Source of the DNA: Patescibacteria group bacterium
GTDB lineage: Bacteria; Patescibacteriota; Patescibacteriia; Patescibacteriales; JAQTRU01
Direction: 5' to 3'
DNA length: 64,000 nt
Assembly: GCA_028716725.1 (NCBI GenBank)
Contig: JAQUPG010000003.1
Coordinates: 11,512-75,511, forward strand
The position numbers and the translations under genes were made by a program. Of the stretch, positions 3,109 to 61,619 are shown in pieces; position 1 is the first letter of the stretch, and each line of letters opens with the position of its first letter. Below the pieces are notes generated by a model. It was given only the letters and a program-made list of their open reading frames with translations. It was not told where the DNA came from and did no database searches.

Positions 3109-4560
3109 TTAGATTCTATTTTTTGTTTCTCTATTTAACAACACTAAAATTTCTTCTCTTGTTACACCTTTTAAAAAATACAAAGCCAAAAAATAAACCG
3201 CTGCGGAAAAACTTAAAGTCGAAAATAAGCCGCCGATACCGCCAGAGAATTGGTTCGGCAAAATCCAGAGAAAAACGGCCATAACTCCCGAAGCCAGAAT
3301 TGATTTAAATAAAACCTTAAAATTAAAAAAGAAACCGGCATATTTATAAACAAGGTAAAAAGCGGCCAAAGCGATAAAAAGCTCGCTGTAAACCGTCACC
3401 CAGGCCGCGCCCAGGTAAGAAAAGCGGGGAATAAAAATAAGGTAGCCGGCTAAAGCCGTTACGCTCGTAAAAAAATAAGCGCCGATTATCTTTTTCTGCT
3501 TGTCTAAAGCGATGATGGCATGGGAAAAAATGCAGCCGAAGAATATGGCCCAAGAGGCCAGCACCAAGATTTTAAGAACCGCTCCGGAAGCGGCAAAATC
3601 TCTTCCGGCGACAACAACCATTACCTCTTCGGCTAAAAATTGCGTCCCGACCACCAAAGGTACGGCCAAAATCATCATAAAATCAAAAGATTTCTGCAGG
3701 ACTTTTTTAAAAGAATCCATGCTTCCTCCGGCCCAATCAGCGGTTAAAACCGGCAAAATAATCCCGGCAAACATAAAAGGAATAGTGATTAAAACATCAA
3801 TCACTTTGTAGGCGGCGCCGTAAACCCCGACCTCGCCCGGCGTTTTTATTAAAGAAAGGATTAAAGTATCGGCTTTAAGATAGATAAGATTAAAGGCAAT
3901 AGTAATGGCCAAAGGCCAGGTCTTTCTGATAATTTCTTTCCAGATTAACCAGTCGAACTGAATTCTTAGGCGGACAAACCGCCAGGAAAATATGAATAGG
4001 AATAAAAAATTAATAGCCGAAGCGAAAACGGTGGCAAAAATTATTCCCAAAAGGCCGAGGTTCAGTTCAACCGCAAAAATAACGCCGGCGACCAGAACCA
4101 GCCGCCCGATAATTTCCGCAATGGAAACTTTATCCATCCTTAAATTTTTCTGGAACAGGCCGACAAAAATCTGGTTTAAAGCGATAAAGAAAAAAGAGAA
4201 AACCGCCACGGCCACCCCTAATTTAACTTCCGGGCCGTAAGGGAGAAAAATAATGGTAAGCGGCGCCAAAGCCAGAAAAAAGATGGCTGACACCAGGCGC
4301 AAAGTAAAAAGATTATTTAAAATTTTGCCCTCGTCAACTCCGGGCCGGCTGATCATCGCCGCCGTGACCAAAGTCAGGCCTAAATCAGCCAAAATCCCAA
4401 AAACGGACAAAAAAGTTATAATCGTGGTATATTGGCCGAAACCAATCAGGCCGAGATAACGGGTGATAACCGCCACCGCAACCAGGCCCAGAACCGTGGC
4501 CATAACCTTGCTTATTATCTGAATAACCGTATTGTAAAAAATCTTAGCCGATAGTCGCAT
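3109..4560 (-). CDS. Polysaccharide/lipid-linked oligosaccharide flippase (Wzx/MOP superfamily)
   Basis: Polytopic membrane ORF of 12 or more hydrophobic helices, with the typical MRLSAKIFYNTVIQIISK N-terminus. The ATG at 4560 is preferred over the GTG at 4620 listed in the track. Confidence 0.75.
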   Translation of the reverse strand: MRLSAKIFYNTVIQIISKVMATVLGLVAVAVITRYLGLIGFGQYTTIITFLSVFGILADLGLTLVTAAMISRPGVDEGKILNNLFTLRLVSAIFFLALAPLTIIFLPYGPEVKLGVAVAVFSFFFIALNQIFVGLFQKNLRMDKVSIAEIIGRLVLVAGVIFAVELNLGLLGIIFATVFASAINFLFLFIFSWRFVRLRIQFDWLIWKEIIRKTWPLAITIAFNLIYLKADTLILSLIKTPGEVGVYGAAYKVIDVLITIPFMFAGIILPVLTADWAGGSMDSFKKVLQKSFDFMMILAVPLVVGTQFLAEEVMVVVAGRDFAASGAVLKILVLASWAIFFGCIFSHAIIALDKQKKIIGAYFFTSVTALAGYLIFIPRFSYLGAAWVTVYSELFIALAAFYLVYKYAGFFFNFKVLFKSILASGVMAVFLWILPNQFSGGIGGLFSTLSFSAAVYFLALYFLKGVTREEILVLLNRETKNRI

Positions 4561-6194: not shown

Positions 6195-6305
6195 TAAATG
6201 GGATCTTTGGAATTCTGGGGACTCTTAGGATCTTTAGGGTATTTATAGCTCCTAAGAATCCCAGGAATCTTAACAATCCTAAGAGCCCCAATAACGCAGA
6301 TAGCT

Positions 6306-10747: not shown

Positions 10748-10844
10748 GTTACAAATTACAAATCTTACACAAATATTACAAATAATTAGAAAAAACGACT
10801 ATCTTAACATTTGTAAAATTTGTAATGTATTTGTAATTTGTAAC
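10748..10844. repeat. Inverted heptamer-word array (TACAAAT / ATTTGTA)
   Basis: The left arm 10748-10783 (gttacaaattacaaat...) is an imperfect reverse complement of the right arm 10809-10844 (...atttgtaatttgtaac). Confidence 0.8.
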
Positions 10845-11402: not shown

Positions 11403-11415
11403 ATAGTATTTATAC

Positions 11416-11587
11416 TGTCATTGCGAGGCTCCGCCCTTCTTTTCCTATCATTGCGAGAAGCGTAGCGACGAAGCAATCTAACGCACAATGATTTTCATCT
11501 AAAGATTACATTTTGTGCCTGCGCATCATTCGTTAGATTGCCGCGTCAGTCGTCCCGAAGGCTCGGGACTCCTTCCTCGCAATGACA
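11416..11587. mobile_element. MITE-like nested-hairpin element with TGTCATTGCGAGG termini
   Basis: Terminal inverted repeats are tgtcattgcgagg (11416-11428) and cctcgcaatgaca (11575-11587). Internal IRs include gcaatctaacg/cgttagattgc and the hairpin GTCCCGAAGGCTCGGGAC (11552-11569). Confidence 0.6.
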
Positions 11588-11596
11588 AAATAAGAA

Positions 11597-11659
11597 GGCA
11601 AAACCGATAGTTTTCCAGAAGCGCCGGAAAGAAAAAAACCAAAAGTGGTGTTTGAGTAG
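11597..11659 (+). pseudogene. Displaced duplicate of the nitroreductase 3' end
   Basis: Encodes GKTDSFPEAPERKKPKVVFE*, against GKTDSFPEAPERKKPEVIFK* at 11340-11402. A hand alignment gives 51/63 nt identical. Confidence 0.7.
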
Positions 11660-14394: not shown

Positions 14395-14409
14395 TACCCC
14401 CTTCTTTTT

Positions 14410-14523
14410 TGTCATTCCGAACCCGCAGGGTGAGGAATCCCTTAGACGTGTCAATATTAATGTCCGTGCCATTACAATCTTTAAGGGATCTCTCGCCCCG
14501 AAGCGTCGGGGCTCGAGATGACA
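14410..14523. mobile_element. MITE-like hairpin element, second member of the TGTCATT(C/G)CGA family
   Basis: Termini are tgtcattccga (14410-14420) and tcgagatgaca (14513-14523). Inner IRs are atcccttaga/tctttaagggat and the hairpin CCCCGAAGCGTCGGGG. Confidence 0.55.
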
Positions 14524-14556
14524 AAAAGAAAAAGGAGAGTAATTGCGCCTGCGCCT

Positions 14557-15030
14557 ATGCCTATTTTAGCGATAAACAAACGAGCCAGCTTTGACTATAA
14601 TATCGGCGACAAGTACGAAGCCGGAATGGTTCTTTTCGGGCACGAGGTGAAATCCGTTAAAACCGGGCACATGAGCCTGAAAGGCAGCTATGTAACTTTA
14701 AAACAGAAGCAAAAAAACAAACAGCCGGAGTTTTTTCTTATAAACGCCCATATTCCTTTATATAAGCAGGCCGGCCAGATGCCGAGCTATGACCCGACCC
14801 GGCCGAGGCAGCTGCTTCTTAATAAAAAAGAGATAAAGCGGTTAATCGGGAAGAAGCAGGAGCAAGGATTGACATTAGTGCCTTTAAAAATATATACTAA
14901 ACATAGTTTTGTAAAACTGGAGTTCGGCTTAGGCAAAGGCAAGAAGAAGTACGATAAACGCGAGACAATCAAGAAAAGAGAGGTGGACCGCAAAATCCGC
15001 ACTTTAACAAAACAAGTCAGAAAATCTTGA
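14557..15030 (+). CDS. smpB: SsrA-binding protein SmpB
   Basis: ILAINKRASFDYNI..EAGMVLFGHEVKSVK core. The listed start at 14518 lies inside the repeat element, so the ATG at 14557 is preferred. Confidence 0.85.
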   Translation: MPILAINKRASFDYNIGDKYEAGMVLFGHEVKSVKTGHMSLKGSYVTLKQKQKNKQPEFFLINAHIPLYKQAGQMPSYDPTRPRQLLLNKKEIKRLIGKKQEQGLTLVPLKIYTKHSFVKLEFGLGKGKKKYDKRETIKKREVDRKIRTLTKQVRKS

Positions 15031-15085
15031 ATCTAAAATCCGCAGTCGGCAAATCTGAAATCTAAAATCTACAATCTAAAATCAA
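15031..15085. repeat. Heptamer-word array ATCTAAA/ATCTGAA/ATCTACA upstream of tmRNA
   Basis: aatctaaaatccgcagtcggcaaatctgaaatctaaaatctacaatctaaaatc, with 7-nt periodicity. Confidence 0.8.
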
Positions 15086-15089
15086 AGAC

Positions 15090-15476
15090 GGGGATGCCAG
15101 GCATCGATAATGAGATTTCTTTCTAAACATTCCGGACGTGGCCGCGGGCTATTCACGTAAAACTGGCCCGCAAAATTCAAATGTCAACACATTTGTAAGC
15201 AAGGTCAAAACGGCTTTTGCCAGTTTGGCCTTTGCTCCCGCTATCGCTTAATAAAGCCATAGCCATCCGGCCGGTCGAGTCTTCATAGCCGGTACCGGGT
15301 GTCATTAATGAAGATAGATTTATAAATCGTTCTCGCTTATAAATTAAAACCAAGAGAACTGGTTATTATTGATTTTGCTTTGTTTCTACGGTAATAACGA
15401 GAAAATAAATAAAGCTATTCCTGTAAATATGTTTAGAAGAACTTATTAGACGTGGGTTCGATTCCCACCATCTCCA
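15090..15476 (+). ncRNA. ssrA: tmRNA (one-piece)
   Basis: The 5' GGGGATG pairs with the 3' CATCTCC. T-arm is GTGGGTTCGATTCCCAC. The internal tag frame reads ...AAA ACG GCT TTT GCC AGT TTG GCC TTT GCT CCC GCT ATC GCT TAA TAA (..KTAFASLAFAPAIA**, stops at 15249-15254). It is adjacent to smpB. Confidence 0.85.
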
Positions 15477-15477
15477 C

Positions 15478-15556
15478 AGAGATAATTGCAGATTTAAGAT
15501 TTTAGATTTTAGATTTAATATTTATTCTGCAATCTGCAATCTGAAATCTAAAATTA
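15478..15556. repeat. Inverted heptamer array (AGATTTN arm then ATCTNAA arm)
   Basis: gcagatttaagattttagattttagattta ... tctgcaatctgcaatctgaaatctaaaatt. Confidence 0.8.
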
Positions 15557-15557
15557 T

Positions 15558-15914
15558 ATGACTAAGGAGGAGTTGAAGCAAAGAACAAAAAACTTTGCTT
15601 TAAGAGCTATAAAACTGGTTAATGCTTTGCCAAACACTATTGCCGGCAGAAATATAGGAAGCCAGCTGTTTCGTTCCGGAACTTCGGTGGCCGCAAACTA
15701 TAGGGCCGCCTGCCGCAGCCGATCCACCGCAGAATTTTTAGCTAAATTAAACACGGTTATAGAAGAAGCGGATGAAAGCCTGTTCTGGATTGAAATAATA
15801 AAAGAAAGTAAAATAATAGATGAAAACCGATTACATTCGTTATTAAAAGAAGCTGACGAAATAGTCGCCATAATGGTTGCTTCCAGAAAATCAGTTCAAA
15901 AAAACAATCAGTAA
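15558..15914 (+). CDS. Four-helix-bundle protein (23S rRNA intervening-sequence protein family)
   Basis: RSGTSVAANYRAA.R.RS..EF..KL..V.EEADES.FW signature. Confidence 0.85.
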   Translation: MTKEELKQRTKNFALRAIKLVNALPNTIAGRNIGSQLFRSGTSVAANYRAACRSRSTAEFLAKLNTVIEEADESLFWIEIIKESKIIDENRLHSLLKEADEIVAIMVASRKSVQKNNQ

Positions 15915-15947
15915 ATCTGCAATCTACAATCTTAAATCTAAAATCAT
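15915..15947. repeat. Heptamer-word array ATCTNNA
   Basis: aatctgcaatctacaatcttaaatctaaaatc, directly before tRNA-Leu. Confidence 0.75.
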
Positions 15948-15949
15948 GG

Positions 15950-16034
15950 GCCCGGGTGGTGAAATTGGTATACACGAGGGACTTAAAATCCCTTGGATTC
16001 ATACTCCGTGCGGGTTCGAGTCCCGCCCCGGGCA
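15950..16034 (+). tRNA. tRNA-Leu(TAA), type II
   Basis: Acceptor GCCCGGG/CCCGGGC, anticodon arm AGGGA-CTTAAAA-TCCCT, long variable arm, T-arm GCGGGTTCGAGTCCCGC. Confidence 0.9.
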
Positions 16035-16193
16035 CATAAAAAATAAAATAGAAGTCTTTTCTCGCCTACGCGAGCTAACGCGGGCTTTGCCCGCCGTAGC
16101 GGGAAGAAAAAAAATATTTAATAACAGCCACTTTCGTGCCTATTGAGAGACAGCGGGCTTTGCCCGCCGTAGTCCCGAAGGCTCGGGACGTAG

Positions 16194-16265: not shown

Positions 16266-16304
16266 CAGGTATTAACCTTTAACGGTTAACTACTAACATT
16301 TAAC

Positions 16305-16416
16305 CGGAGTATAATGTTATCAGGGTTTGATTCCCGCTTGTCCCGCCGACTTGTCCGCCGAAGCCTTGGCGTCGGTGGAAGTCCCGAAGCTTCGGGACGA
16401 AGGGGGATTACCCGCT
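16305..16416 (+). pseudogene. Decayed tandem copy of tRNA-Gly carrying a 71-nt hairpin-module insertion
   Basis: ggagtataatgttatcagggtttgattcccgct[insert]tacccgctcag aligns to the D-loop, T-arm and acceptor of the intact gene but lacks the anticodon arm. The downstream flank is duplicated too. Confidence 0.65.
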
Positions 16417-16460
16417 CAGATTATAACCTTTAACAGCTAACTATTAACAATTAACTTAAA

Positions 16461-19812: not shown

Positions 19813-19948
19813 CCCCTAAAAAATTAAAATTAAAAAATCAAAATGTAAAATTAAGGTGTCGCTATCGCGACAGATTTATTAAATAAATCTATGAGCGAAG
19901 CGAATACAATAATTTTGATTTTTGATTTTTACATTTTTCATTCTTAAG

Positions 19949-20035
19949 GCCGAAGTGGTGGAATTGGTAGACACGCAGCGTTCAGAGCGCTGTGGGGGCA
20001 ACTCCGTGGAGGTTCAAATCCTCTCTTCGGCACCA
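19949..20035 (+). tRNA. tRNA-Leu(CAG), type II, CCA encoded
   Basis: Acceptor GCCGAAG/CTTCGGC, anticodon arm CAGCG-TTCAGAG-CGCTG, long variable arm. Confidence 0.9.
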
Positions 20036-20179
20036 TGAGATTTTACCTGCCTACCGGCAAGCAGGGATTTAAAATTTTAGATTTAAAAAATATAATCTCT
20101 CTCTATAATTAATAATTTAAAAAATTAATTGATAACTGTTCCACCAACTGGTGGATAGTTAACCGTTAATTACTGAAAC

Positions 20180-22316: not shown

Positions 22317-22387
22317 ATTTTTAACGCTAAAAATAAACTCTCCCTGATTTTATTATAATATATCGATAAAAACAGTCAACCATTAAA

Positions 22388-22502
22388 AATAACCAATAAC
22401 CAAGAAACAATAATCAAACAAATCATAATAACAAATAATCAAATTGTTTGGTTATTAAAGTTTAGTTATTGGTTATTGTTTGGAATTTGGTTATTGGTTA
22501 TT
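22388..22502. repeat. Inverted heptamer-word array (ATAACCA / TGGTTAT)
   Basis: The 16-bp perfect termini are aataaccaataaccaa (22388-22403) and ttggttattggttatt (22487-22502). Confidence 0.8.
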
Positions 22503-24308: not shown

Positions 24309-24394
24309 CAGTTAACAGTTGACCATTAACAATTAATAAATATCTAAAAGCTAAAGGTTAACTGTCAATTGTTAAGAGTTAATTGTTAATATCC

Positions 24395-24470: not shown

Positions 24471-24553
24471 CTTCGGATTTCAGATATCAGATTTCGGGTT
24501 GTAGATTTAGAACTTAAATCATCCCCTAATTTAATAATTAACAAAATAATCTT

Positions 24554-27861: not shown

Positions 27862-27900
27862 AATTAATTGAAAATTGATAATTGAAAATTGATAATTGTT
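27862..27900. repeat. Heptamer-word array AATTGAA/AATTGAT upstream of polA
   Basis: aattgaaaattgataattgaaaattgataattg. Confidence 0.8.
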
Positions 27901-27939: not shown

Positions 27940-30753
27940 ATGGCAAAAGCTAATCCAAAGCTAATAATAATAGACGGCAATGCCCTAATCCACCGCAGTT
28001 TTCACGCCCTGCCGGCGACTATGGCGACCAAAGCCGGGGAAATGGTTAACGCGGTTTACGGTTTTACCGCGGTTTTGCTTAAAGCGATTCGGGAATTTAA
28101 ACCCGAATACGTGGTTTTGACTTTGGACCGGAAAGCCCAGACTTTCCGGCACAAACAATTTAAGGAATATAAAGCTACGCGCATTAAAGCCCCGGATGAG
28201 CTTTACGCGCAGATTCCGCGGGTGAAGGAAATTGCCGAAAGCTTTTCTATCCCGATTTTTGAAAAAGACGGGTTTGAAGCGGATGATCTGATTGGGACCA
28301 TCGCCCGCAAAACCGACGGTAAAATTGAAAAAATAATCGTAACCGGGGATATGGACACTTTGCAGTTGATTAATGGCCATACTAAAGTCTATACTATGAG
28401 CCGGGGCCTGTCTGACAGTATTATTTATGATGAAAAAACGGTTAAGGCGCGGTTTGATTTAACTCCGGACCAGATGATTGACTTTAAGGCCCTGCGCGGA
28501 GACCCCAGCGACAATATCCCCGGGGTAAGGGGGATTGGCGAAAAGGGTGCGATCGAACTATTGAAAGATTTTAAAACTTTGGACGGAATTTATAAAAATA
28601 TTGAATCAACAAGAATCAGGGACCGGATAAGAGCCTTATTAAAAGAGCAAAAAAAAGAAGCTTACATGTCCCGCGATTTAGCCACAATTAAATGCGACGT
28701 TGGCATAGACTTTAATTTGGAAAAAACCCGTTTCGCCGGCTTTAACCAGGAAAAAGTCGTTAAACTTTTTAGCGAACTTGAATTTAAATCCTTGCTCCCC
28801 CGCCTGCACGCCTTAGCCGGCCAAACCGAAACCACAAAAGAAGTCCGGGAAGAAAAAATCCTGGATAAGTTTGAGAGAAACCGGAAAATGTTTAAATATA
28901 TTCTGATAAACAAAGACAAAGACTTTAATTCCCTTTTAACTAAATTAAAAAGAGAGGTTAGTTTTACCTTTGATGTGGAAACTTCTTCTTTTGACCCTTT
29001 AACCGTCCGATTGCTGGGCATCAGTTTTTCCTGGGAAAAGGGTGTTGCTTATTTTGTCAGCACAAGAAGCCCGCAAAATCAGGATGGCAAAAAGGCAAAT
29101 TTGTTTAGTTATAATCCGACATCCGAAATCCGACATCCGAAATCCGACATTCACCCCTGGCTTGAAGGTTTAAAATCCATCTTCGCTGATCCTAAAATAA
29201 AAAAATACGGCCATAACATAAAATTTGATACCCGGGTTGTGGAAGCCCAAGGCATAAAAGTTGAAGGCATTGCTTTTGACACTATGATCGCCTCCTATCT
29301 ACTTAACCCGGGCACGCGCCAACACAATCTGGACGCTTTAACTTTTTCCGAACTGGGCTTTGAAAAAATCAGCAAAGATGATTTATTGGGCAAGGGCCGG
29401 GACAAAATAACTTTTTCCGAAGTAGCCGAAGAAAAACTGGCTCTTTATTCCTGCGAAGACGCGGATTTTACCAACCAACTCGTAAATAAACTAAAAGCCG
29501 AGCTTAAAAAACAAAAATTGGACACTCTCTTTGAAAAAATTGAAATGCCCCTAGTAGACGTTCTGGCCGAGATGGAAAATAACGGAATTTTAATTAACAA
29601 AAACCTACTTTCTAAAATGAGCAAGAAAGTTTCAGATAAATTAGAAGAACTTGAGAAAAAAATCTACAGAGAGGCCAAAACTAAATTTAATATTAATTCC
29701 ACCCAGCAATTGCGCGAAATCCTTTTTACTAAACTGGAGATCCCGATTGATAATATTAAAAAAAATAAAACCGGCCTATCTACGGCCGCAGACGAACTGG
29801 ATAAATTGAAAGATTTGCACCCCATAATTCCTTTAATGCAGGAATACCGCGAGCTGAAAAAATTGGCCACGACCTATATTGACGCTCTACCCGAGCTGAT
29901 TAACAAAAAAACCGGGCGCCTGCATACGAGTTTTAACCAGACCATCACGGCCACGGGTCGGCTTTCTTCAACTGAACCAAATTTGCAGAATATTCCCGTG
30001 CGCACGCAATTGGGACGAGAAATCAGGCAGGCGTTTGTCGCGGACAAAGGGAAAAAATTAGTAAGCCTTGATTATTCCCAAATCGAGTTACGCCTGGCCG
30101 CCCATATGTCCGGTGACAAAAAAATGATAAAGGCTTTTAAAGATGGGGCAGACATCCACACGGCGACAGCCGCGGAAATTAATCAGGTTAGCACCGAGGT
30201 CGTTACGAAAAACATGCGCCGCGAAGCCAAAGCCATCAACTTCGGAATCCTTTACGGCCAAGGACCGCACGGCCTGGCGCAAACAGCCGGCATTTCTTAT
30301 ACCCGGGCTAAAGATTTTATTGACCAGTATTTTTCAGTCCATAAAGATATAAAAAAATTTATAGACAAAACTTTGGCTGACGCCAAGAAAAGGGGATATG
30401 TAGAAACAATGTTTGGCCGGCGGCGGTATTTGCCGGAAATAAATTCCTCCGTGATCCAGGTCAAAAGAGCGGCTGAACGCATGGCTGTTAACGCGCCCCT
30501 GCAAGGCACGGCCGCAGATCTGATAAAGGCGGCCATGATAGAAATCCATAACTTGCTCGGAAAAGATCCTGATGTTAAAATGCTTCTTCAGGTCCATGAC
30601 GAGCTGGTTTTCGAAATAGCCGAAAGAGAGGTTAAAAAAAATGTCCCCAAAATTAAAAATATCATGGAAAACGTTTTAAAATTAAAAGTTCCGATTGTGG
30701 TAGAAGCGAGCATCGGCGATAATTGGGGAGAGATGGAACCAATTAACAATTAA
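27940..30753 (+). CDS. polA: DNA polymerase I
   Basis: 937 aa with 5'-nuclease, 3'-5' exo-like and polymerase domains (RRxAKAINFGIxYG, QVHDELVFE). Confidence 0.95.
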   Translation: MAKANPKLIIIDGNALIHRSFHALPATMATKAGEMVNAVYGFTAVLLKAIREFKPEYVVLTLDRKAQTFRHKQFKEYKATRIKAPDELYAQIPRVKEIAESFSIPIFEKDGFEADDLIGTIARKTDGKIEKIIVTGDMDTLQLINGHTKVYTMSRGLSDSIIYDEKTVKARFDLTPDQMIDFKALRGDPSDNIPGVRGIGEKGAIELLKDFKTLDGIYKNIESTRIRDRIRALLKEQKKEAYMSRDLATIKCDVGIDFNLEKTRFAGFNQEKVVKLFSELEFKSLLPRLHALAGQTETTKEVREEKILDKFERNRKMFKYILINKDKDFNSLLTKLKREVSFTFDVETSSFDPLTVRLLGISFSWEKGVAYFVSTRSPQNQDGKKANLFSYNPTSEIRHPKSDIHPWLEGLKSIFADPKIKKYGHNIKFDTRVVEAQGIKVEGIAFDTMIASYLLNPGTRQHNLDALTFSELGFEKISKDDLLGKGRDKITFSEVAEEKLALYSCEDADFTNQLVNKLKAELKKQKLDTLFEKIEMPLVDVLAEMENNGILINKNLLSKMSKKVSDKLEELEKKIYREAKTKFNINSTQQLREILFTKLEIPIDNIKKNKTGLSTAADELDKLKDLHPIIPLMQEYRELKKLATTYIDALPELINKKTGRLHTSFNQTITATGRLSSTEPNLQNIPVRTQLGREIRQAFVADKGKKLVSLDYSQIELRLAAHMSGDKKMIKAFKDGADIHTATAAEINQVSTEVVTKNMRREAKAINFGILYGQGPHGLAQTAGISYTRAKDFIDQYFSVHKDIKKFIDKTLADAKKRGYVETMFGRRRYLPEINSSVIQVKRAAERMAVNAPLQGTAADLIKAAMIEIHNLLGKDPDVKMLLQVHDELVFEIAEREVKKNVPKIKNIMENVLKLKVPIVVEASIGDNWGEMEPINN
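29114..29148 (+). repeat. In-frame heptanucleotide tandem repeat inside polA
   Basis: ATCCGAC ATCCGAA ATCCGAC ATCCGAA ATCCGAC (then a degenerate ATTCACC), translated as ..NPTSEIRHPKSDIHPW.. Confidence 0.85.
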
Positions 30754-30767
30754 CAATTATCAATTTA
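30740..30767. repeat. Heptamer-word array CAATTAA/CAATTAT overlapping the polA stop
   Basis: caattaacaattaacaattatcaattta, the reverse complement of the word family upstream of polA. Confidence 0.8.
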
Positions 30768-34555: not shown

Positions 34556-34705
34556 ATAAATGGCAGGGACTCTAAAAAATCTGCAATCTAATAAAATCTG
34601 AAGTTATTATGGTGCCCCGGGTCAGAATTGAACTGACGACACAAGGCCCCGCAATACATTTGCTACGCAAATGAATGCGGGGTAAAATTTTCAGTCCGGC
34701 GCCTG

Positions 34706-34863
34706 TCCCGCCTCAATGCCGAGAAATAATTATCCCTCGGAAAATTTTAGATTTACAATTTTATGGTGCCTGGGGTGAGAATTGGACTCACGACACAAGG
34801 ATTTTCAGTCCTTTGCTCTACCACTGAGCTACCCAGGCCTTTTTACTCGGCATTGGAGCGGGA
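34706..34863 (-). mobile_element. 158-bp unit bounded by 18-bp inverted repeats and carrying the intact tRNA-Phe
   Basis: tcccgcctcaatgccgag (34706-34723) against ctcggcattggagcggga (34846-34863), 16/18 complementary. Confidence 0.4.
34764..34838 (-). tRNA. tRNA-Phe(GAA), CCA encoded, atypical T-loop TCCAATT
   Basis: The reverse complement reads GCCTGGG-TA-GCTC-AGTGGTA-GAGC-A-AAGGA-CTGAAAA-TCCTT-GTGTC-GTGAG-TCCAATT-CTCAC-CCCAGGC-A-CCA. Confidence 0.85.
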
Positions 34864-34955
34864 CTCTACCACTGAGCTACCGAGGCCCTAAAAATGCAAA
34901 ATTATTGTGAAAATTAATTCGTCGCTAACCGAGTTGTTAATTTTTAATTTCTATG

Positions 34956-35028: not shown

Positions 35029-35107
35029 ACGTATTCAATTAATAATTACGAATTATCAATTACGAACTTGAAGCTCTATTCATAACTCGTAATTGTTAAT
35101 TGATTTG

Positions 35108-43393: not shown

Positions 43394-43470
43394 AAAGTCA
43401 GAAAGTTATAAAGTCCATAAAGCCAGAGAAAACCTTTAACTTTATAAACTTTATAACTTTTAACTATTTT

Positions 43471-52413: not shown

Positions 52414-52460
52414 TTCTAAATTCTAAAACCTAAAATCTAATATCTAACACCCAACACCTA
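52414..52460. repeat. Heptamer array in perfect 7-nt phase abutting a stop codon
   Basis: TTCTAAA TTCTAAA ACCTAAA ATCTAAT ATCTAAC ACCCAAC ACCTAG. Confidence 0.8.
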
Positions 52461-53953: not shown

Positions 53954-54197
53954 CAAAGATAAACAGGAAGGTTGTTTTTGTCTGAGACTGGTTTATAATT
54001 AGAAAAGTCCACGTTCTTGTAGACTTAAGTCATAGTTTGATAATGTTTTATTGATTTTTTATTTAATATTAGCCAAAAAGTTAATTTTATCTTATCAAAT
54101 AGTTTACCCCGTTAGAAAAGCAGGGTTTTCTTATGGGGTTTTACGTAGAACATAAATTAGTTAATTGTTAATTGTTAAAAGTTAATGGTTAATACCC

Positions 54198-54271: not shown

Positions 54272-54418
54272 CACGTTTAATTTCAGATTTAAGATTTTAG
54301 ATTGTAGATTTAGGAATTTTAGCTGATATTAACAAAAAGTTCTTTGTAGAACATTCAAGGAGCAGTAAAATTAGTGGTATTTTAACAACCATTAAACCAT
54401 AGTATAAGGAGGCGTGAC

Positions 54419-58393: not shown

Positions 58394-59026
58394 ATGTTAG
58401 ACCTTAACCAGGAAAACAGGATATTTAGCCAGGGCTATAAATTAATTGCCAGTTTGGACGAAGCAGGCCGCGGGCCTTTAGCCGGTCCGGTCGTGGCCGC
58501 CTGCATAGTTTTGCCGGCCGGGTTTGAGGTGAATGAAGAAAAATTAAAATTGATTGCGGACTCTAAAATTTTAAACGCTTCCCGGCGGGAAGAATTATTT
58601 TCCGTTATTAGCGAACAATTCGGAGTCGGGATCGGCATCTGTGATAATAAAACCATTGATAAAATAAATATTTTTCAGGCCTCTTTTCTGGCCATGAAAA
58701 AAGCTTTGGGGGCTTTAAAACAAAAACCGGATTTTGTTTTATTGGACGGCGGGTTTAAAATCCCAAATTATACGGGCGAGCAGAAAAATATTATAAAAGG
58801 GGACAGCTTGGTTTTCTCCATCGCGGCCGCTTCTATAATCGCTAAAGTGACCCGGGATAATTTAATGAAACAGTTCCATGAAAAATATCCGCAATACGGC
58901 TTTGACCAGCATAAAGGCTATGGGACAAAATTGCATTTAGTTAATTTAAAAAAATACGGACCTTGTCCGATTCATCGTTTTAGTTTCGGCCCGGTGGCCG
59001 ATTTAAATAATATAAAAATAAAATAA
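58394..59026 (+). CDS. rnhB: Ribonuclease HII
   Basis: DEAGRGPLAGPVVAA and DSK motifs. The ATG at 58394 is used because the listed 58229 start overlaps the transporter. Confidence 0.9.
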   Translation: MLDLNQENRIFSQGYKLIASLDEAGRGPLAGPVVAACIVLPAGFEVNEEKLKLIADSKILNASRREELFSVISEQFGVGIGICDNKTIDKINIFQASFLAMKKALGALKQKPDFVLLDGGFKIPNYTGEQKNIIKGDSLVFSIAAASIIAKVTRDNLMKQFHEKYPQYGFDQHKGYGTKLHLVNLKKYGPCPIHRFSFGPVADLNNIKIK

Positions 59027-59091
59027 TAAAATAACAAAATAAAGAGCTGGTCATTTTTTATATTATTTTATTATTTTATTATTTTAACATT

Positions 59092-59367
59092 ATGGCGAAT
59101 AAAAAAAGTTTTACAAGCGAGGAAGCAAAAAATATCGGCGAGTCTTTAGGCATTGACTGGAGCAAATTTGACGTGGAACAATTCCGGGCCGGAATGGACG
59201 TGGAATTGGAGCACGGTTTGGTTGACCAACACACTAACGTTACTGATGACGATCCGCTGGTAACCGGAAAAATCGCCTTGGCGCACCTGAATGAATTTCC
59301 CGATTATTATACAAGATTGGAAGAAATGGAAAAAGAGGGCGAAAAATATTGGGGAGGCAAGAAATAG
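59092..59367 (+). CDS. Conserved small hypothetical protein
   Basis: 91-aa ORF with a G.DVELEHG....T.VT.DD....GKIALAHL.E.PDYYT.L motif. Its own terminator is at 59381-59413. Confidence 0.55.
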   Translation: MANKKSFTSEEAKNIGESLGIDWSKFDVEQFRAGMDVELEHGLVDQHTNVTDDDPLVTGKIALAHLNEFPDYYTRLEEMEKEGEKYWGGKK

Positions 59368-61526: not shown

Positions 61527-61619
61527 CTACGAATTATGAATCAGTACGAATATACGAATTTTATGTCAGAAATGTTAATATTAGTATTCGTACATTCGTA
61601 AAAAATTCGTAATTCGTAG
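61527..61619. repeat. Inverted heptamer-word array (TACGAAT / ATTCGTA)
   Basis: The left arm is 61527-61559 (ctacgaattatgaatcagtacgaatatacgaat). The right arm is 61586-61619 (attcgtacattcgtaaaaaattcgtaattcgtag). Confidence 0.8.

Follow-up and report, generated by a model that had tools for sequence, protein, structure and literature searches.

Known heptamer repeats and intervening sequences

The four-helix bundle proteins of the S23p family (TIGR02436/PF05635) were first found in the intervening sequences (IVSs) of 23S rRNA genes and are related to Avd of diversity-generating retroelements (DGRs), outside which, to our knowledge, no role of the family is known. These proteins are very widespread, being encoded in rRNA IVSs and in CRISPR and restriction-modification (R-M) operons. 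Here, we analyzed a 64,000-nt stretch of DNA from a Patescibacteria group bacterium (contig JAQUPG010000003.1, positions 11,512 to 75,511; the whole stretch is called the window below), in which arrays of tandem heptamers lie beside the transfer-messenger RNA (tmRNA) gene. The arrays at 15031-15947 are very probably the repeat arms of an inserted cassette carrying a single gene of this family.

In the 23S rRNA IVS of Coxiella burnetii, two or three tandem GACAGAT heptamers precede the S23p open reading frame (ORF), and their number varies among strains. The terminal stem of this IVS is 28 bp long, and RNase III cleaves it where the first heptamer begins. The Xanthomonas homolog of the family is a homopentamer. 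The window cassette resembles the IVSs of Coxiella and Leptospira in its ORF of the same family, its terminal inverted repeats able to form a stem around the ORF, its sporadic presence and its location in a stable-RNA transcription unit, and it shares with Coxiella the tandem heptamers immediately upstream of the ORF. It differs in that its arms consist wholly of about five heptamers, it does not lie in 23S helix 45, further arrays, and hairpins without an ORF, are scattered through the genome, and the protein is conserved rather than decaying. Unlike the case of Avd and the DGRs, no reverse transcriptase was present near the cassette.

Other known elements share single features with the arrays. 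Repetitive extragenic palindromes and the bacterial interspersed mosaic elements built from them (REP/BIME) are imperfect palindromes in intercistronic and 3' operon regions of enterobacteria and affect mRNA stability. They resemble the elements described here in this placement but belong to one genome-wide sequence family, lack internal periodicity and are mobilized by REP-associated tyrosine transposases (RAYTs). The ring of the trp RNA-binding attenuation protein (TRAP) reads 11 GAG/UAG triplets, and Avd, which shares the fold of the four-helix bundle family, is a pentamer that binds nucleic acids. As an analogy only, the number of ring subunits equals the number of repeats in TRAP, while the family is pentameric and the array mode is five units. 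In the leader/trailer stems of rRNA, complementary flanks can enclose a stable RNA, as is predicted here for tmRNA; however, rRNA stems are conserved with their gene, whereas the tmRNA pairing is absent from all four cassette-bearing relatives and from all array-free ones.

The short tandemly repeated repetitive (STRR) elements of filamentous cyanobacteria are 7-bp repeats that form hairpins in operons such as hupS-hupL, for which roles in transcript stability or translational coupling were proposed. They likewise consist of intergenic tandem 7-bp units with hairpins within operons, and cyanobacterial four-helix bundle genes are flanked by such heptamers. The difference is that STRRs comprise a few genome-wide words in a cyanobacterial host, whereas the window belongs to a Patescibacterium and has AT-rich NNN-(A/G)ATT words that vary between spacers. 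The window words fall outside the described cyanobacterial families, which have consensus sequences such as CCCCAGT. The title of one cited report places STRRs also within the stable-RNA gene rnpB. In Beggiatoaceae, cyanobacteria and Bacteroidetes, TAACTGA repeats occur with a patchy spread as two to six sense copies a few nucleotides before start codons and were proposed to be the site of a post-transcriptional regulator (MacGregor 2015). In contrast to the arrays studied here, they use one genome-wide word and form inverted pairs in only 1 of 170 sets, and a term search found S23 and four-helix bundle unmentioned in the main text of that report.

The original prediction, made from the DNA letters alone, knew of no description of gene-bracketing, locus-specific heptamers. 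Taken to mean that none exists, this was too strong, given the STRR hairpins within operons, the Beggiatoaceae heptamers and the Coxiella IVS heptamers. Beyond the Coxiella paper, our literature search found nothing linking heptamer arrays to the four-helix bundle family; it also found no paper linking STRRs to this family, nor any that treats heptamer arrays of candidate phyla.

Heptamer arrays bracket a four-helix bundle gene next to tmRNA

The host is a Patescibacterium of the candidate phyla radiation near Candidatus Falkowbacteria, with an SmpB at most 76% identical to that of any GTDB species representative. Positions 7281-27625 of the window were 100% identical to contig JAQTQT010000006.1 of GCA_028712785.1. 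In an exact-protein look-up for sibling strains, SmpB was unmatched and L20 led only to GCA_028712785.1, which is the same genome. The locus contains the following features and continues with tRNA-Gly(gcc):

14518-15030, plus strand: smpB, the upstream neighbor (Pfam SmpB, 2.1e-49)
15023-15086, minus strand: ATCTNAA array upstream of tmRNA (NNNGATT when read on the minus strand; its units fall into 4+5 around CAGTCGGCAA at 15043)
15090-15479, plus strand: tmRNA gene (ARAGORN; Rfam RF00023, 133.7 bits)
15481-15524, plus strand: AGATTTN array, putative upstream arm of the cassette (sense NNNGATT, 5-6 units; in inverted pairs I1 and I6)
15526-15557, minus strand: proximal ATCTNAA array, ending 1-3 nt before the ATG
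15558-15914, plus strand: gene of a 118-aa four-helix bundle protein (23S rRNA intervening-sequence protein family; PF05635, TIGR02436, PDB 2RLD)
15914-15948, minus strand: distal ATCTNAA array, putative downstream arm of the cassette (5 units; ends 2 nt before tRNA-Leu)
15950-16035, plus strand: tRNA-Leu(taa)

The 118-aa ORF matched PF05635 (6e-16, 59 bits), TIGR02436 (88.6 bits, cut-off 24) and PDB 2RLD (1.7e-14), a structure containing five chains. An alignment of homologs showed that the protein is highly conserved and not decaying. No match to it was found in the PADLOC and PHROGs libraries, and no second four-helix bundle gene was found within the window.

The order smpB-tmRNA-tRNA-Leu(taa)-tRNA-Gly(gcc) is kept in relatives (synteny over loci L001-L034; loci are cited by number below). 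Four loci, L082, L089, L004 and L007, carry the same ORF between tmRNA and tRNA-Leu, and together with the window all five carriers have inverted arrays bracketing it, NNNGATT upstream and AATCNNN downstream. A complementary array upstream of tmRNA was present in none of the four cassette-bearing relatives: this place is occupied by a hairpin of a different word in L082 and L004 and by direct GGAAATT repeats in L007, and it is empty in L089. Therefore, the conserved bracket surrounds the ORF and not tmRNA, which the original prediction had taken for the bracketed object, overlooking the neighboring ORF. About 20 related smpB-tmRNA loci lack the gene. Their tmRNA/tRNA-Leu spacers measure 5-40 nt and are free of arrays, except for L001, where a gene-less 42-nt spacer holds a degenerate array trace. 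Although smpB, tmRNA and the tRNAs of L001 and L082 are 83-99% identical, the entire 466-nt unit is missing from L001. Spacers turn over completely between such close relatives.

Compared with known IVSs, the cassette has a PF05635/TIGR02436 ORF, complementary termini that could form a stem of at least 20 bp, a sporadic presence (5 vs about 20 loci) and upstream heptamers, and it lies between tmRNA and tRNA-Leu instead of within a 23S or 16S rRNA gene. We class it as an element of a candidate-phyla genome that resembles an IVS or an STRR but lies outside rRNA.

The inverted pair around tmRNA that had been described earlier does exist (15051-15083 with 15491-15523, 33 nt, 88% complementary). 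The ORF is bracketed by pair I1 (15482-15526 with 15903-15947, 45 nt, 78% complementary). In RNAfold predictions, the stem enclosing tmRNA was part of the minimum-free-energy (MFE) structure, but as other possible partners of the arrays compete with it, the centroid fold lacks it; the pairing around the ORF was partly present in the MFE fold. With four arrays of the same family within 1 kb, orientation alone gives an inverted pair around tmRNA at about even odds. The proximal array at 15526-15557, which was seen only in the window and L082, folds locally with 15481-15524 (dG -18.8, z -4.0). The array at 15023-15086, with its CAGTCGGCAA interruption, is homologous to the L082 array between the ORF and tRNA-Leu, suggesting that an array was copied across the locus (window 15031-15085 vs L082 4217-4275).

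A weak promoter-like match, TCGGCA-18-TACAAT, is located at 15046-15075 and ends 15 nt before tmRNA. A recurring module, in which CAGTCG(G/T)C precedes roughly five ATCTNAA units containing TACAAT or TAAAAT, was observed at 15043-15075 of the window and at 4240-4275 and 4445-4485 of L082. It contains weak sigma-70-like matches, and the mature 5' ends of tmRNA, tRNA-Leu and tRNA-Gly follow it at a distance of 4-14 nt. Given the promoter-like match and its repetition upstream of the L082 tRNA genes, a transcriptional role for the ATCT-oriented arrays is possible.

Two further observations concern the ORFs of this gap. In several homologs, the four-helix bundle ORF runs on into the downstream heptamer array and acquires basic repetitive tails such as SKIKNQNSKI and SEITNHKSQITNG; thus, the array can be translated. 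In L004 (7360-7908) and L005 (1145-1695), a partial tRNA-Leu-like 5' segment is followed by an ORF with an HNH-type end (CPNCHSLKP) in the tmRNA/tRNA-Leu gap, which suggests the insertion of a homing endonuclease at a tRNA-Leu gene.

The same gene and heptamers recur across phyla

A scan of metagenome contigs yielded 80 loci with homologs 54-87% identical, in DNA of 36-63% GC. Sixty-nine of these were non-redundant, and because sets of orthologous sites are included, far fewer than 69 independent insertions are represented. Taking at least 15 of 21 lag-7 matches within 100 nt of the ORF as period-7 signal, such a stretch was found upstream in 82% and downstream in 33% of the 69 loci, compared with 1.8% of 2434 control windows taken from these contigs. 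Arrays are enriched approximately 40-fold beside this gene family. The consensus unit upstream of the genes is NNNGATT, and the arrays usually end 5-15 nt before the start codon.

Orientation and length of the arrays were also regular. Sense GATT chains occurred upstream in 49 of 80 loci and AATC chains downstream in 20 of 78, while the opposite orientations numbered 8 and 2, respectively, and 32 of 4286 background windows contained a chain. The length of the upstream GATT chain peaks sharply at five units (29 of 49). Moreover, period-7 arrays show a second copy-number mode at 4.3-5, which arrays of other periods do not. Of 138 strict GATT chains, 104 lay within 150 nt of a four-helix bundle ORF, and many of the remainder were ORF-less inverted pairs a few kilobases away. 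The two arms of one locus were complementary at 23.9 of 28 positions on average, against 20.1 of 28 for arms of different loci, a difference reached by 0 of 5000 permutations. The canonical unit thus comprises about five sense NNNGATT heptamers, the ORF and about five AATCNNN heptamers whose variable positions are matched to the upstream arm.

Most metagenome and plasmid copies are located between protein genes, and many cassettes begin 10-20 nt after the upstream stop codon. Homologs in the plasmid database PLSDB, annotated as 'four helix bundle protein', came mostly from cyanobacteria: the carriers were Nostoc (11), Planktothrix (3), Gloeocapsa, Pseudanabaena, Dolichospermum and Anabaena, in addition to Bernardetia, Chlorohelix and Treponema, so that the named carriers span cyanobacteria, Bacteroidota, Chloroflexota and Treponema. 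Both flanks of all 16 plasmid loci inspected were periodic at 7 nt, with lag-7 matches of 14 of 21 or more on the upstream side and 15 of 21 or more on the downstream side (1.8% of control windows reach 15 of 21). Heptamer arrays were recognized by eye in 15 of the 16, the exception being Pseudanabaena with a longer repeat period, and the inverted match clearly exceeded the direct match in 10 of 16. In viral contigs, only three loci were found; their pattern matches, and they are too few to count.

Close homologs use GATT words, and the TTAGATT/AAATCTA of Gloeocapsa is the window's own word. Distant paralogs bear different heptamer words, specifically CGCAATT on two Nostoc plasmids, CGTAATT and TGGAATT in Dolichospermum, CAAAATT in N. 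flagelliforme, GAAGTCG in N. punctiforme and N. commune, and CTCTCCG in Treponema. Nostoc sp. C057 carries two paralogs with two different words. Common descent of entire cassettes accounts just as well for this covariation of protein and word, and we therefore did not count it in favor of recognition. In summary, the canonical unit recurs across phyla and over 36-63% GC and is present or absent among close relatives; new here is a cross-phylum rule that joins heptamer arrays to one protein family.

The plasmid genes of the named organisms occur within DISARM, R-M and CRISPR-cas operons. Four-helix bundle genes were also repeatedly wedged in defense operons at L167, L165/L170, L179/L180 and L083-L085. 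Their neighbors at these loci were DISARM drmD and MmeI, DUF1156 and Swt1-HEPN, cas1 and cas2, and an hsdM-like gene of an apparent type I R-M system, the last read from the sequence without a family-library scan. A report of 2013 had counted 18 four-helix bundle genes in cas loci.

Period-7 arrays and hairpins elsewhere in the window

The intergenic DNA of the window (58 spacers, 7.7 kb) had the predicted excess of 7-nt periodicity, with an autocorrelation of z = 9.5 at lag 7 and z = 4.2 at lag 14 relative to dinucleotide shuffles, whereas the coding DNA had only the 3-nt codon period. A lag-7 signal of z = 7.4 remained after every GATT-family array was masked, indicating that other words contribute. 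In-phase GATT chains numbered 11 in the window against 0.63 expected. The arrays were all confirmed at the coordinates that had been claimed for them; the one at 20058-20075 is weak, with three units. Specifically, ATCTAAAATCTA was found at 15060, TAGATTTTAGAT at 15503 and TTGTAGATTTAG at both 24499 and 54302. The units of an array differ from one another, in many cases alternating so that the period is 14 nt.

Ten tRNA genes were detected in the window besides tmRNA. The proposed association of AGATTT-type arrays with stable-RNA genes held, as GATT-family arrays occurred in 8 of 17 RNA-adjacent spacers and 2 of 41 others (Fisher p = 4e-4), in a test whose spacers cluster together and are incompletely independent. 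Extra copies of the array, partnered or solo, lie beside other stable-RNA genes of this lineage. The copies beside tRNA genes and elsewhere, with the two elements preceding the tRNA-Ala genes, are as follows:

24309-24394, no strand assigned: GTTAACN/GTTAATT hairpin, ending 1-2 nt before tRNA-Ala(tgc) (z -5.6)
24473-24510, plus strand: solo GATT-family array of 5 units, starting 3 nt after tRNA-Ala(tgc)
34566-34600 and 34740-34763, minus strand: inverted GATT-family pair in the tRNA-Phe/tRNA-Pro spacer, enclosing a GC-rich tRNA-like sequence
52414-52460, minus strand: irregular GATT-family array between two minus-strand protein genes
54155-54195: array related to that at 24309-24394, preceding tRNA-Ala(ggc)
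54276-54317, plus strand: solo GATT-family array of 6 units, starting 4 nt after tRNA-Ala(ggc)

The flanks of the two tRNA-Ala genes are shared as had been noted, at about 85-88% identity, but the upstream and downstream words are not complementary at either gene. The supposed locus specificity of the words applies in part: many words differ between spacers, but 51 of 89 period-7 arrays in the Patescibacteria loci share an AATT/GATT core (21±3.6 for letter-shuffled words).

The regions with other words, which had been described as tandem arrays, are heptameric; however, most of them are long local hairpins whose arms are opposed heptamer arrays (folding z -7 to -10 vs shuffles). Many other operon spacers hold such ORF-less hairpins of related NNN-(A/G)ATT words, several of them within conserved operons such as infB-rbfA and yidD-yidC. 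The hairpins of the window, none with a strand assigned, are the following:

6199-6290: ORF-less heptamer/octamer hairpin with GGATC/GGAAT words, between two co-directional genes
10748-10844: ORF-less TGTAATT/ATTTGTA hairpin between the H+-PPase and nitroreductase genes (I2; z -8.0)
19814-19949: AAAATNN/GATTTTT hairpin ending at tRNA-Leu(cag) (I5; z -8.2)
22385-22502: ORF-less AATAACC/GGTTATT hairpin (I7, I8; z -9.9)
35029-35106: CGTAATT/GTTAATT hairpin between tRNA-Ile and tRNA-Met (z -7.2)
43394-43470: hairpin between yidD and yidC in the rnpA-yidD-yidC operon (z -7.1)
59002-59093: AATAAAA/TTTTATT hairpin after the RNase HII gene (I3)
61527-61619: ATTCGTA (=CGTAATT) hairpin between infB and rbfA (z -7.2)

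The CGTAATT word of the infB-rbfA hairpin is also found beside the Dolichospermum four-helix bundle gene. By folding energy, the sense and antisense strands of the hairpins divided 6 vs 5. No Rfam covariance-model match was found at the arrays, the matches in the window being tmRNA and tRNAs only. In addition, no intrinsic terminator (short GC-rich stem plus U tract) was found within the arrays, while ordinary GC-rich terminators are present elsewhere in the window. A terminator role for the arrays was rejected on this ground.

Two arrays are associated with polA:

27866-27898, no strand assigned: GAAAATT/GATAATT array upstream of polA, pairing with 30740-30765 downstream of it (30 nt, 87%; I12)
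29113-29147, minus strand: five TCGGATT/TCGGATG units, in frame inside the polA coding sequence

We do not claim the first as a bracket, since its word family is common in the window and the pairing could be due to chance. The second array sits in the 3'-5' exonuclease region on the antisense strand and encodes a short repetitive peptide. Its word also flanks four-helix bundle genes in L126, L149 and L154.

Possible function of the arrays and alternative explanations

On the whole, we consider it probable, with moderate confidence, that the locus holds an IVS-type gene cassette with heptamer arms that are processed and possibly protein-bound. In the transcript, the arms would pair into a duplex of about 30 bp, and RNase III would cut this duplex as it does in the Coxiella and Leptospira IVSs. 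Cutting would free the ORF RNA and part the neighboring RNAs unharmed, from which harmless residence in highly transcribed stable-RNA or operon contexts would follow. The ORF-less hairpins would serve as intercistronic processing or stability elements, similar to the cyanobacterial STRR hairpins. Judged by the IVS precedent, RNase III-type processing of the arms is a serious possibility that falls somewhat short of being probable. The arrays might also be bound by a protein, most simply by the pentameric four-helix bundle protein itself. The GATT core is conserved and in sense orientation by the start codon, array length has its mode at five units, and the fold of the protein is pentameric; on these grounds we propose such binding tentatively, as an unlikely rather than a likely property.

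Several findings weigh against the processed and protein-bound cassette. No RNase III gene (rnc) was among the approximately 40 window proteins scanned; the ribonuclease-related proteins among them were limited to RNase J, the protein of RNase P and RNase HII. A clear downstream arm was present in only 33% of the metagenome loci, and cyanobacterial plasmid arrays have 3-14 units, so the five-unit rule fails there. Arrays in the window far outnumber the gene (at least 25 vs one), and no four-helix bundle gene was found in the 6.6-8.3 kb of array-rich relatives such as L043 and L028. Additionally, the window arrays have several alternative partners, with a centroid fold lacking long stems, and the absence of a sense/antisense energy asymmetry in the hairpins leaves room for roles at the DNA level.

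A bolder and doubtful proposal is that heptamer arrays, including those of the STRR type, are the cognate nucleic-acid ligands of TIGR02436/PF05635 proteins, with one 7-nt word per paralog and one pentamer per array of about five units. Protein and arrays would together be a 'repeat plus reader' module that propagates itself, acts on operon and stable-RNA transcripts by controlling their processing, stability or translation, and has colonized dozens of spacers in some Patescibacteria. Two old puzzles, the purpose of the heptamer repeats and the role of the S23p/four-helix bundle family, may then be one. The rule of five sense NNNGATT units, a gene, a matched reverse-complement arm and paralog-specific words can be tested cheaply in cultivable organisms. 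For annotation, it accounts for a class of puzzling intergenic repeats in candidate phyla, and it cautions that arrays beside tRNA or tmRNA genes are not necessarily processing signals of the host.

Among the alternatives to a processed gene cassette, the arrays could act at the DNA level as terminal repeats or recombination sites of a mobile element, with solo arrays and ORF-less hairpins as footprints or derivatives resembling miniature inverted-repeat transposable elements (MITEs). The presence or absence of the cassette among close relatives, its insertion in many unrelated operons (R-M, DISARM and CRISPR-cas loci included), the apparent copying of an array across the locus and the lack of RNA strand asymmetry in the hairpins would all agree with this, and IVSs have been proposed in the literature to be remnants of transposition. 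However, the cassette encodes no transposase, integrase or nuclease domain, and no target-site duplication was recognized. Upstream arrays are far more constant than downstream ones (82% vs 33%), unlike terminal inverted repeats, and they keep a fixed short distance to the start codon. We regard this explanation as unlikely.

The original prediction, that leader and trailer arrays of the host pair into a long stem around tmRNA (and tRNAs) for RNase III-type maturation, is similarly improbable. It was a reasonable proposal: the tmRNA flanks are complementary with a stem in the MFE fold, RNase III cleavage has a precedent in Coxiella, tRNA-Leu in L082 likewise has ATCT units upstream and AGATTT units downstream, and the arrays, enriched beside stable-RNA genes, lie 2-6 nt from mature RNA ends. 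What did not stand is the stem as a property of tmRNA, whose bracket is missing from all four cassette-bearing relatives and from the centroid structure. Most relatives retain the same tmRNA/tRNA cluster free of arrays, the tRNA-Ala flanks are not complementary, and in other phyla protein genes that have no stable RNA in their vicinity are flanked by the same arrays.

We give still less credit to the arrays being transcription or translation signals, either tandem -10-like boxes (TAAAAT, TACAAT) of stable-RNA promoters or sense GAUU operators of a translational regulator, as proposed for TAACTGA. The match at 15046-15075 upstream of tmRNA and the CAGTCG(G/T)C module with its array before tRNA-Leu and tRNA-Gly in L082 would fit promoters; the usual stop of arrays 5-15 nt before four-helix bundle start codons would fit operators, considering that TAACTGA repeats lie mostly just upstream of start codons (MacGregor 2015). 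The promoter matches are weak (9 of 12), though, and smpB itself contains a better one (11 of 12); cassettes that begin 10-20 nt after a stop codon have no room for a promoter, and the matched downstream arm is left unexplained.

Functionless heptamer microsatellites, arising by polymerase slippage in AT-rich, repair-poor genomes and only incidentally close to genes, are already disfavored and the least probable source: heptanucleotides are reported by Mrazek et al. (2007), who proposed slippage, to be the commonest long simple sequence repeats in most prokaryotic genomes, copy numbers differ among Coxiella strains and spacers turn over completely between relatives 83-99% identical in genes, but slippage does not account for a GATT core and orientation kept over genomes of 36-63% GC, matched reverse-complement arms, approximately 40-fold enrichment by one gene family, a bimodal copy number with a mode near five for period 7 only, or non-identical units that often alternate over 14 nt.

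Other sequence features of the window and its relatives

At 34556-34954 on the minus strand, an intact tRNA-Phe(gaa) (34764-34838) is apparently nested in a disrupted second tRNA-Phe-like gene. The 5' part of the latter, GGGCCTCGGTAGCTCAGTGGTAGAG, lies upstream, and an 18-nt arm at 34846-34863 is complementary at 16 of 18 positions to 34712-34729. Next come what is left of the anticodon region and an inserted hairpin of 41 nt, followed by the T-arm and acceptor end, whose CCA is near 34602. The inner tRNA-Phe is the only one called by ARAGORN and Rfam. From its sequence, the region looks like a set of stem-bounded insertions in a tRNA gene.

The GC-rich palindrome GTCCCGAAGSNTCGGGAC has four plus-strand sites at 11552-11569, 14495-14512, 16172-16189 and 16381-16398, with seven matches over both strands against 0 expected. 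The sites fall within larger GC-rich insertions of AT-rich spacers (11403-11600, 14395-14517, 16036-16193 and 16330-16420). The GC-rich insert at 16267-16460 splits an array of TTAAC words, and similar inserts were observed in the tRNA-Leu/tRNA-Gly spacer of L001 and L004. These palindromic inserts may be miniature mobile elements.

Period-7 arrays are denser than in the window in L043, L028, L055 and L076, reaching 26 per 10 kb in L043. Close Falkowbacteria relatives, for example, the complete genome behind L014, are nearly array-free, and the trait is patchy within the group.

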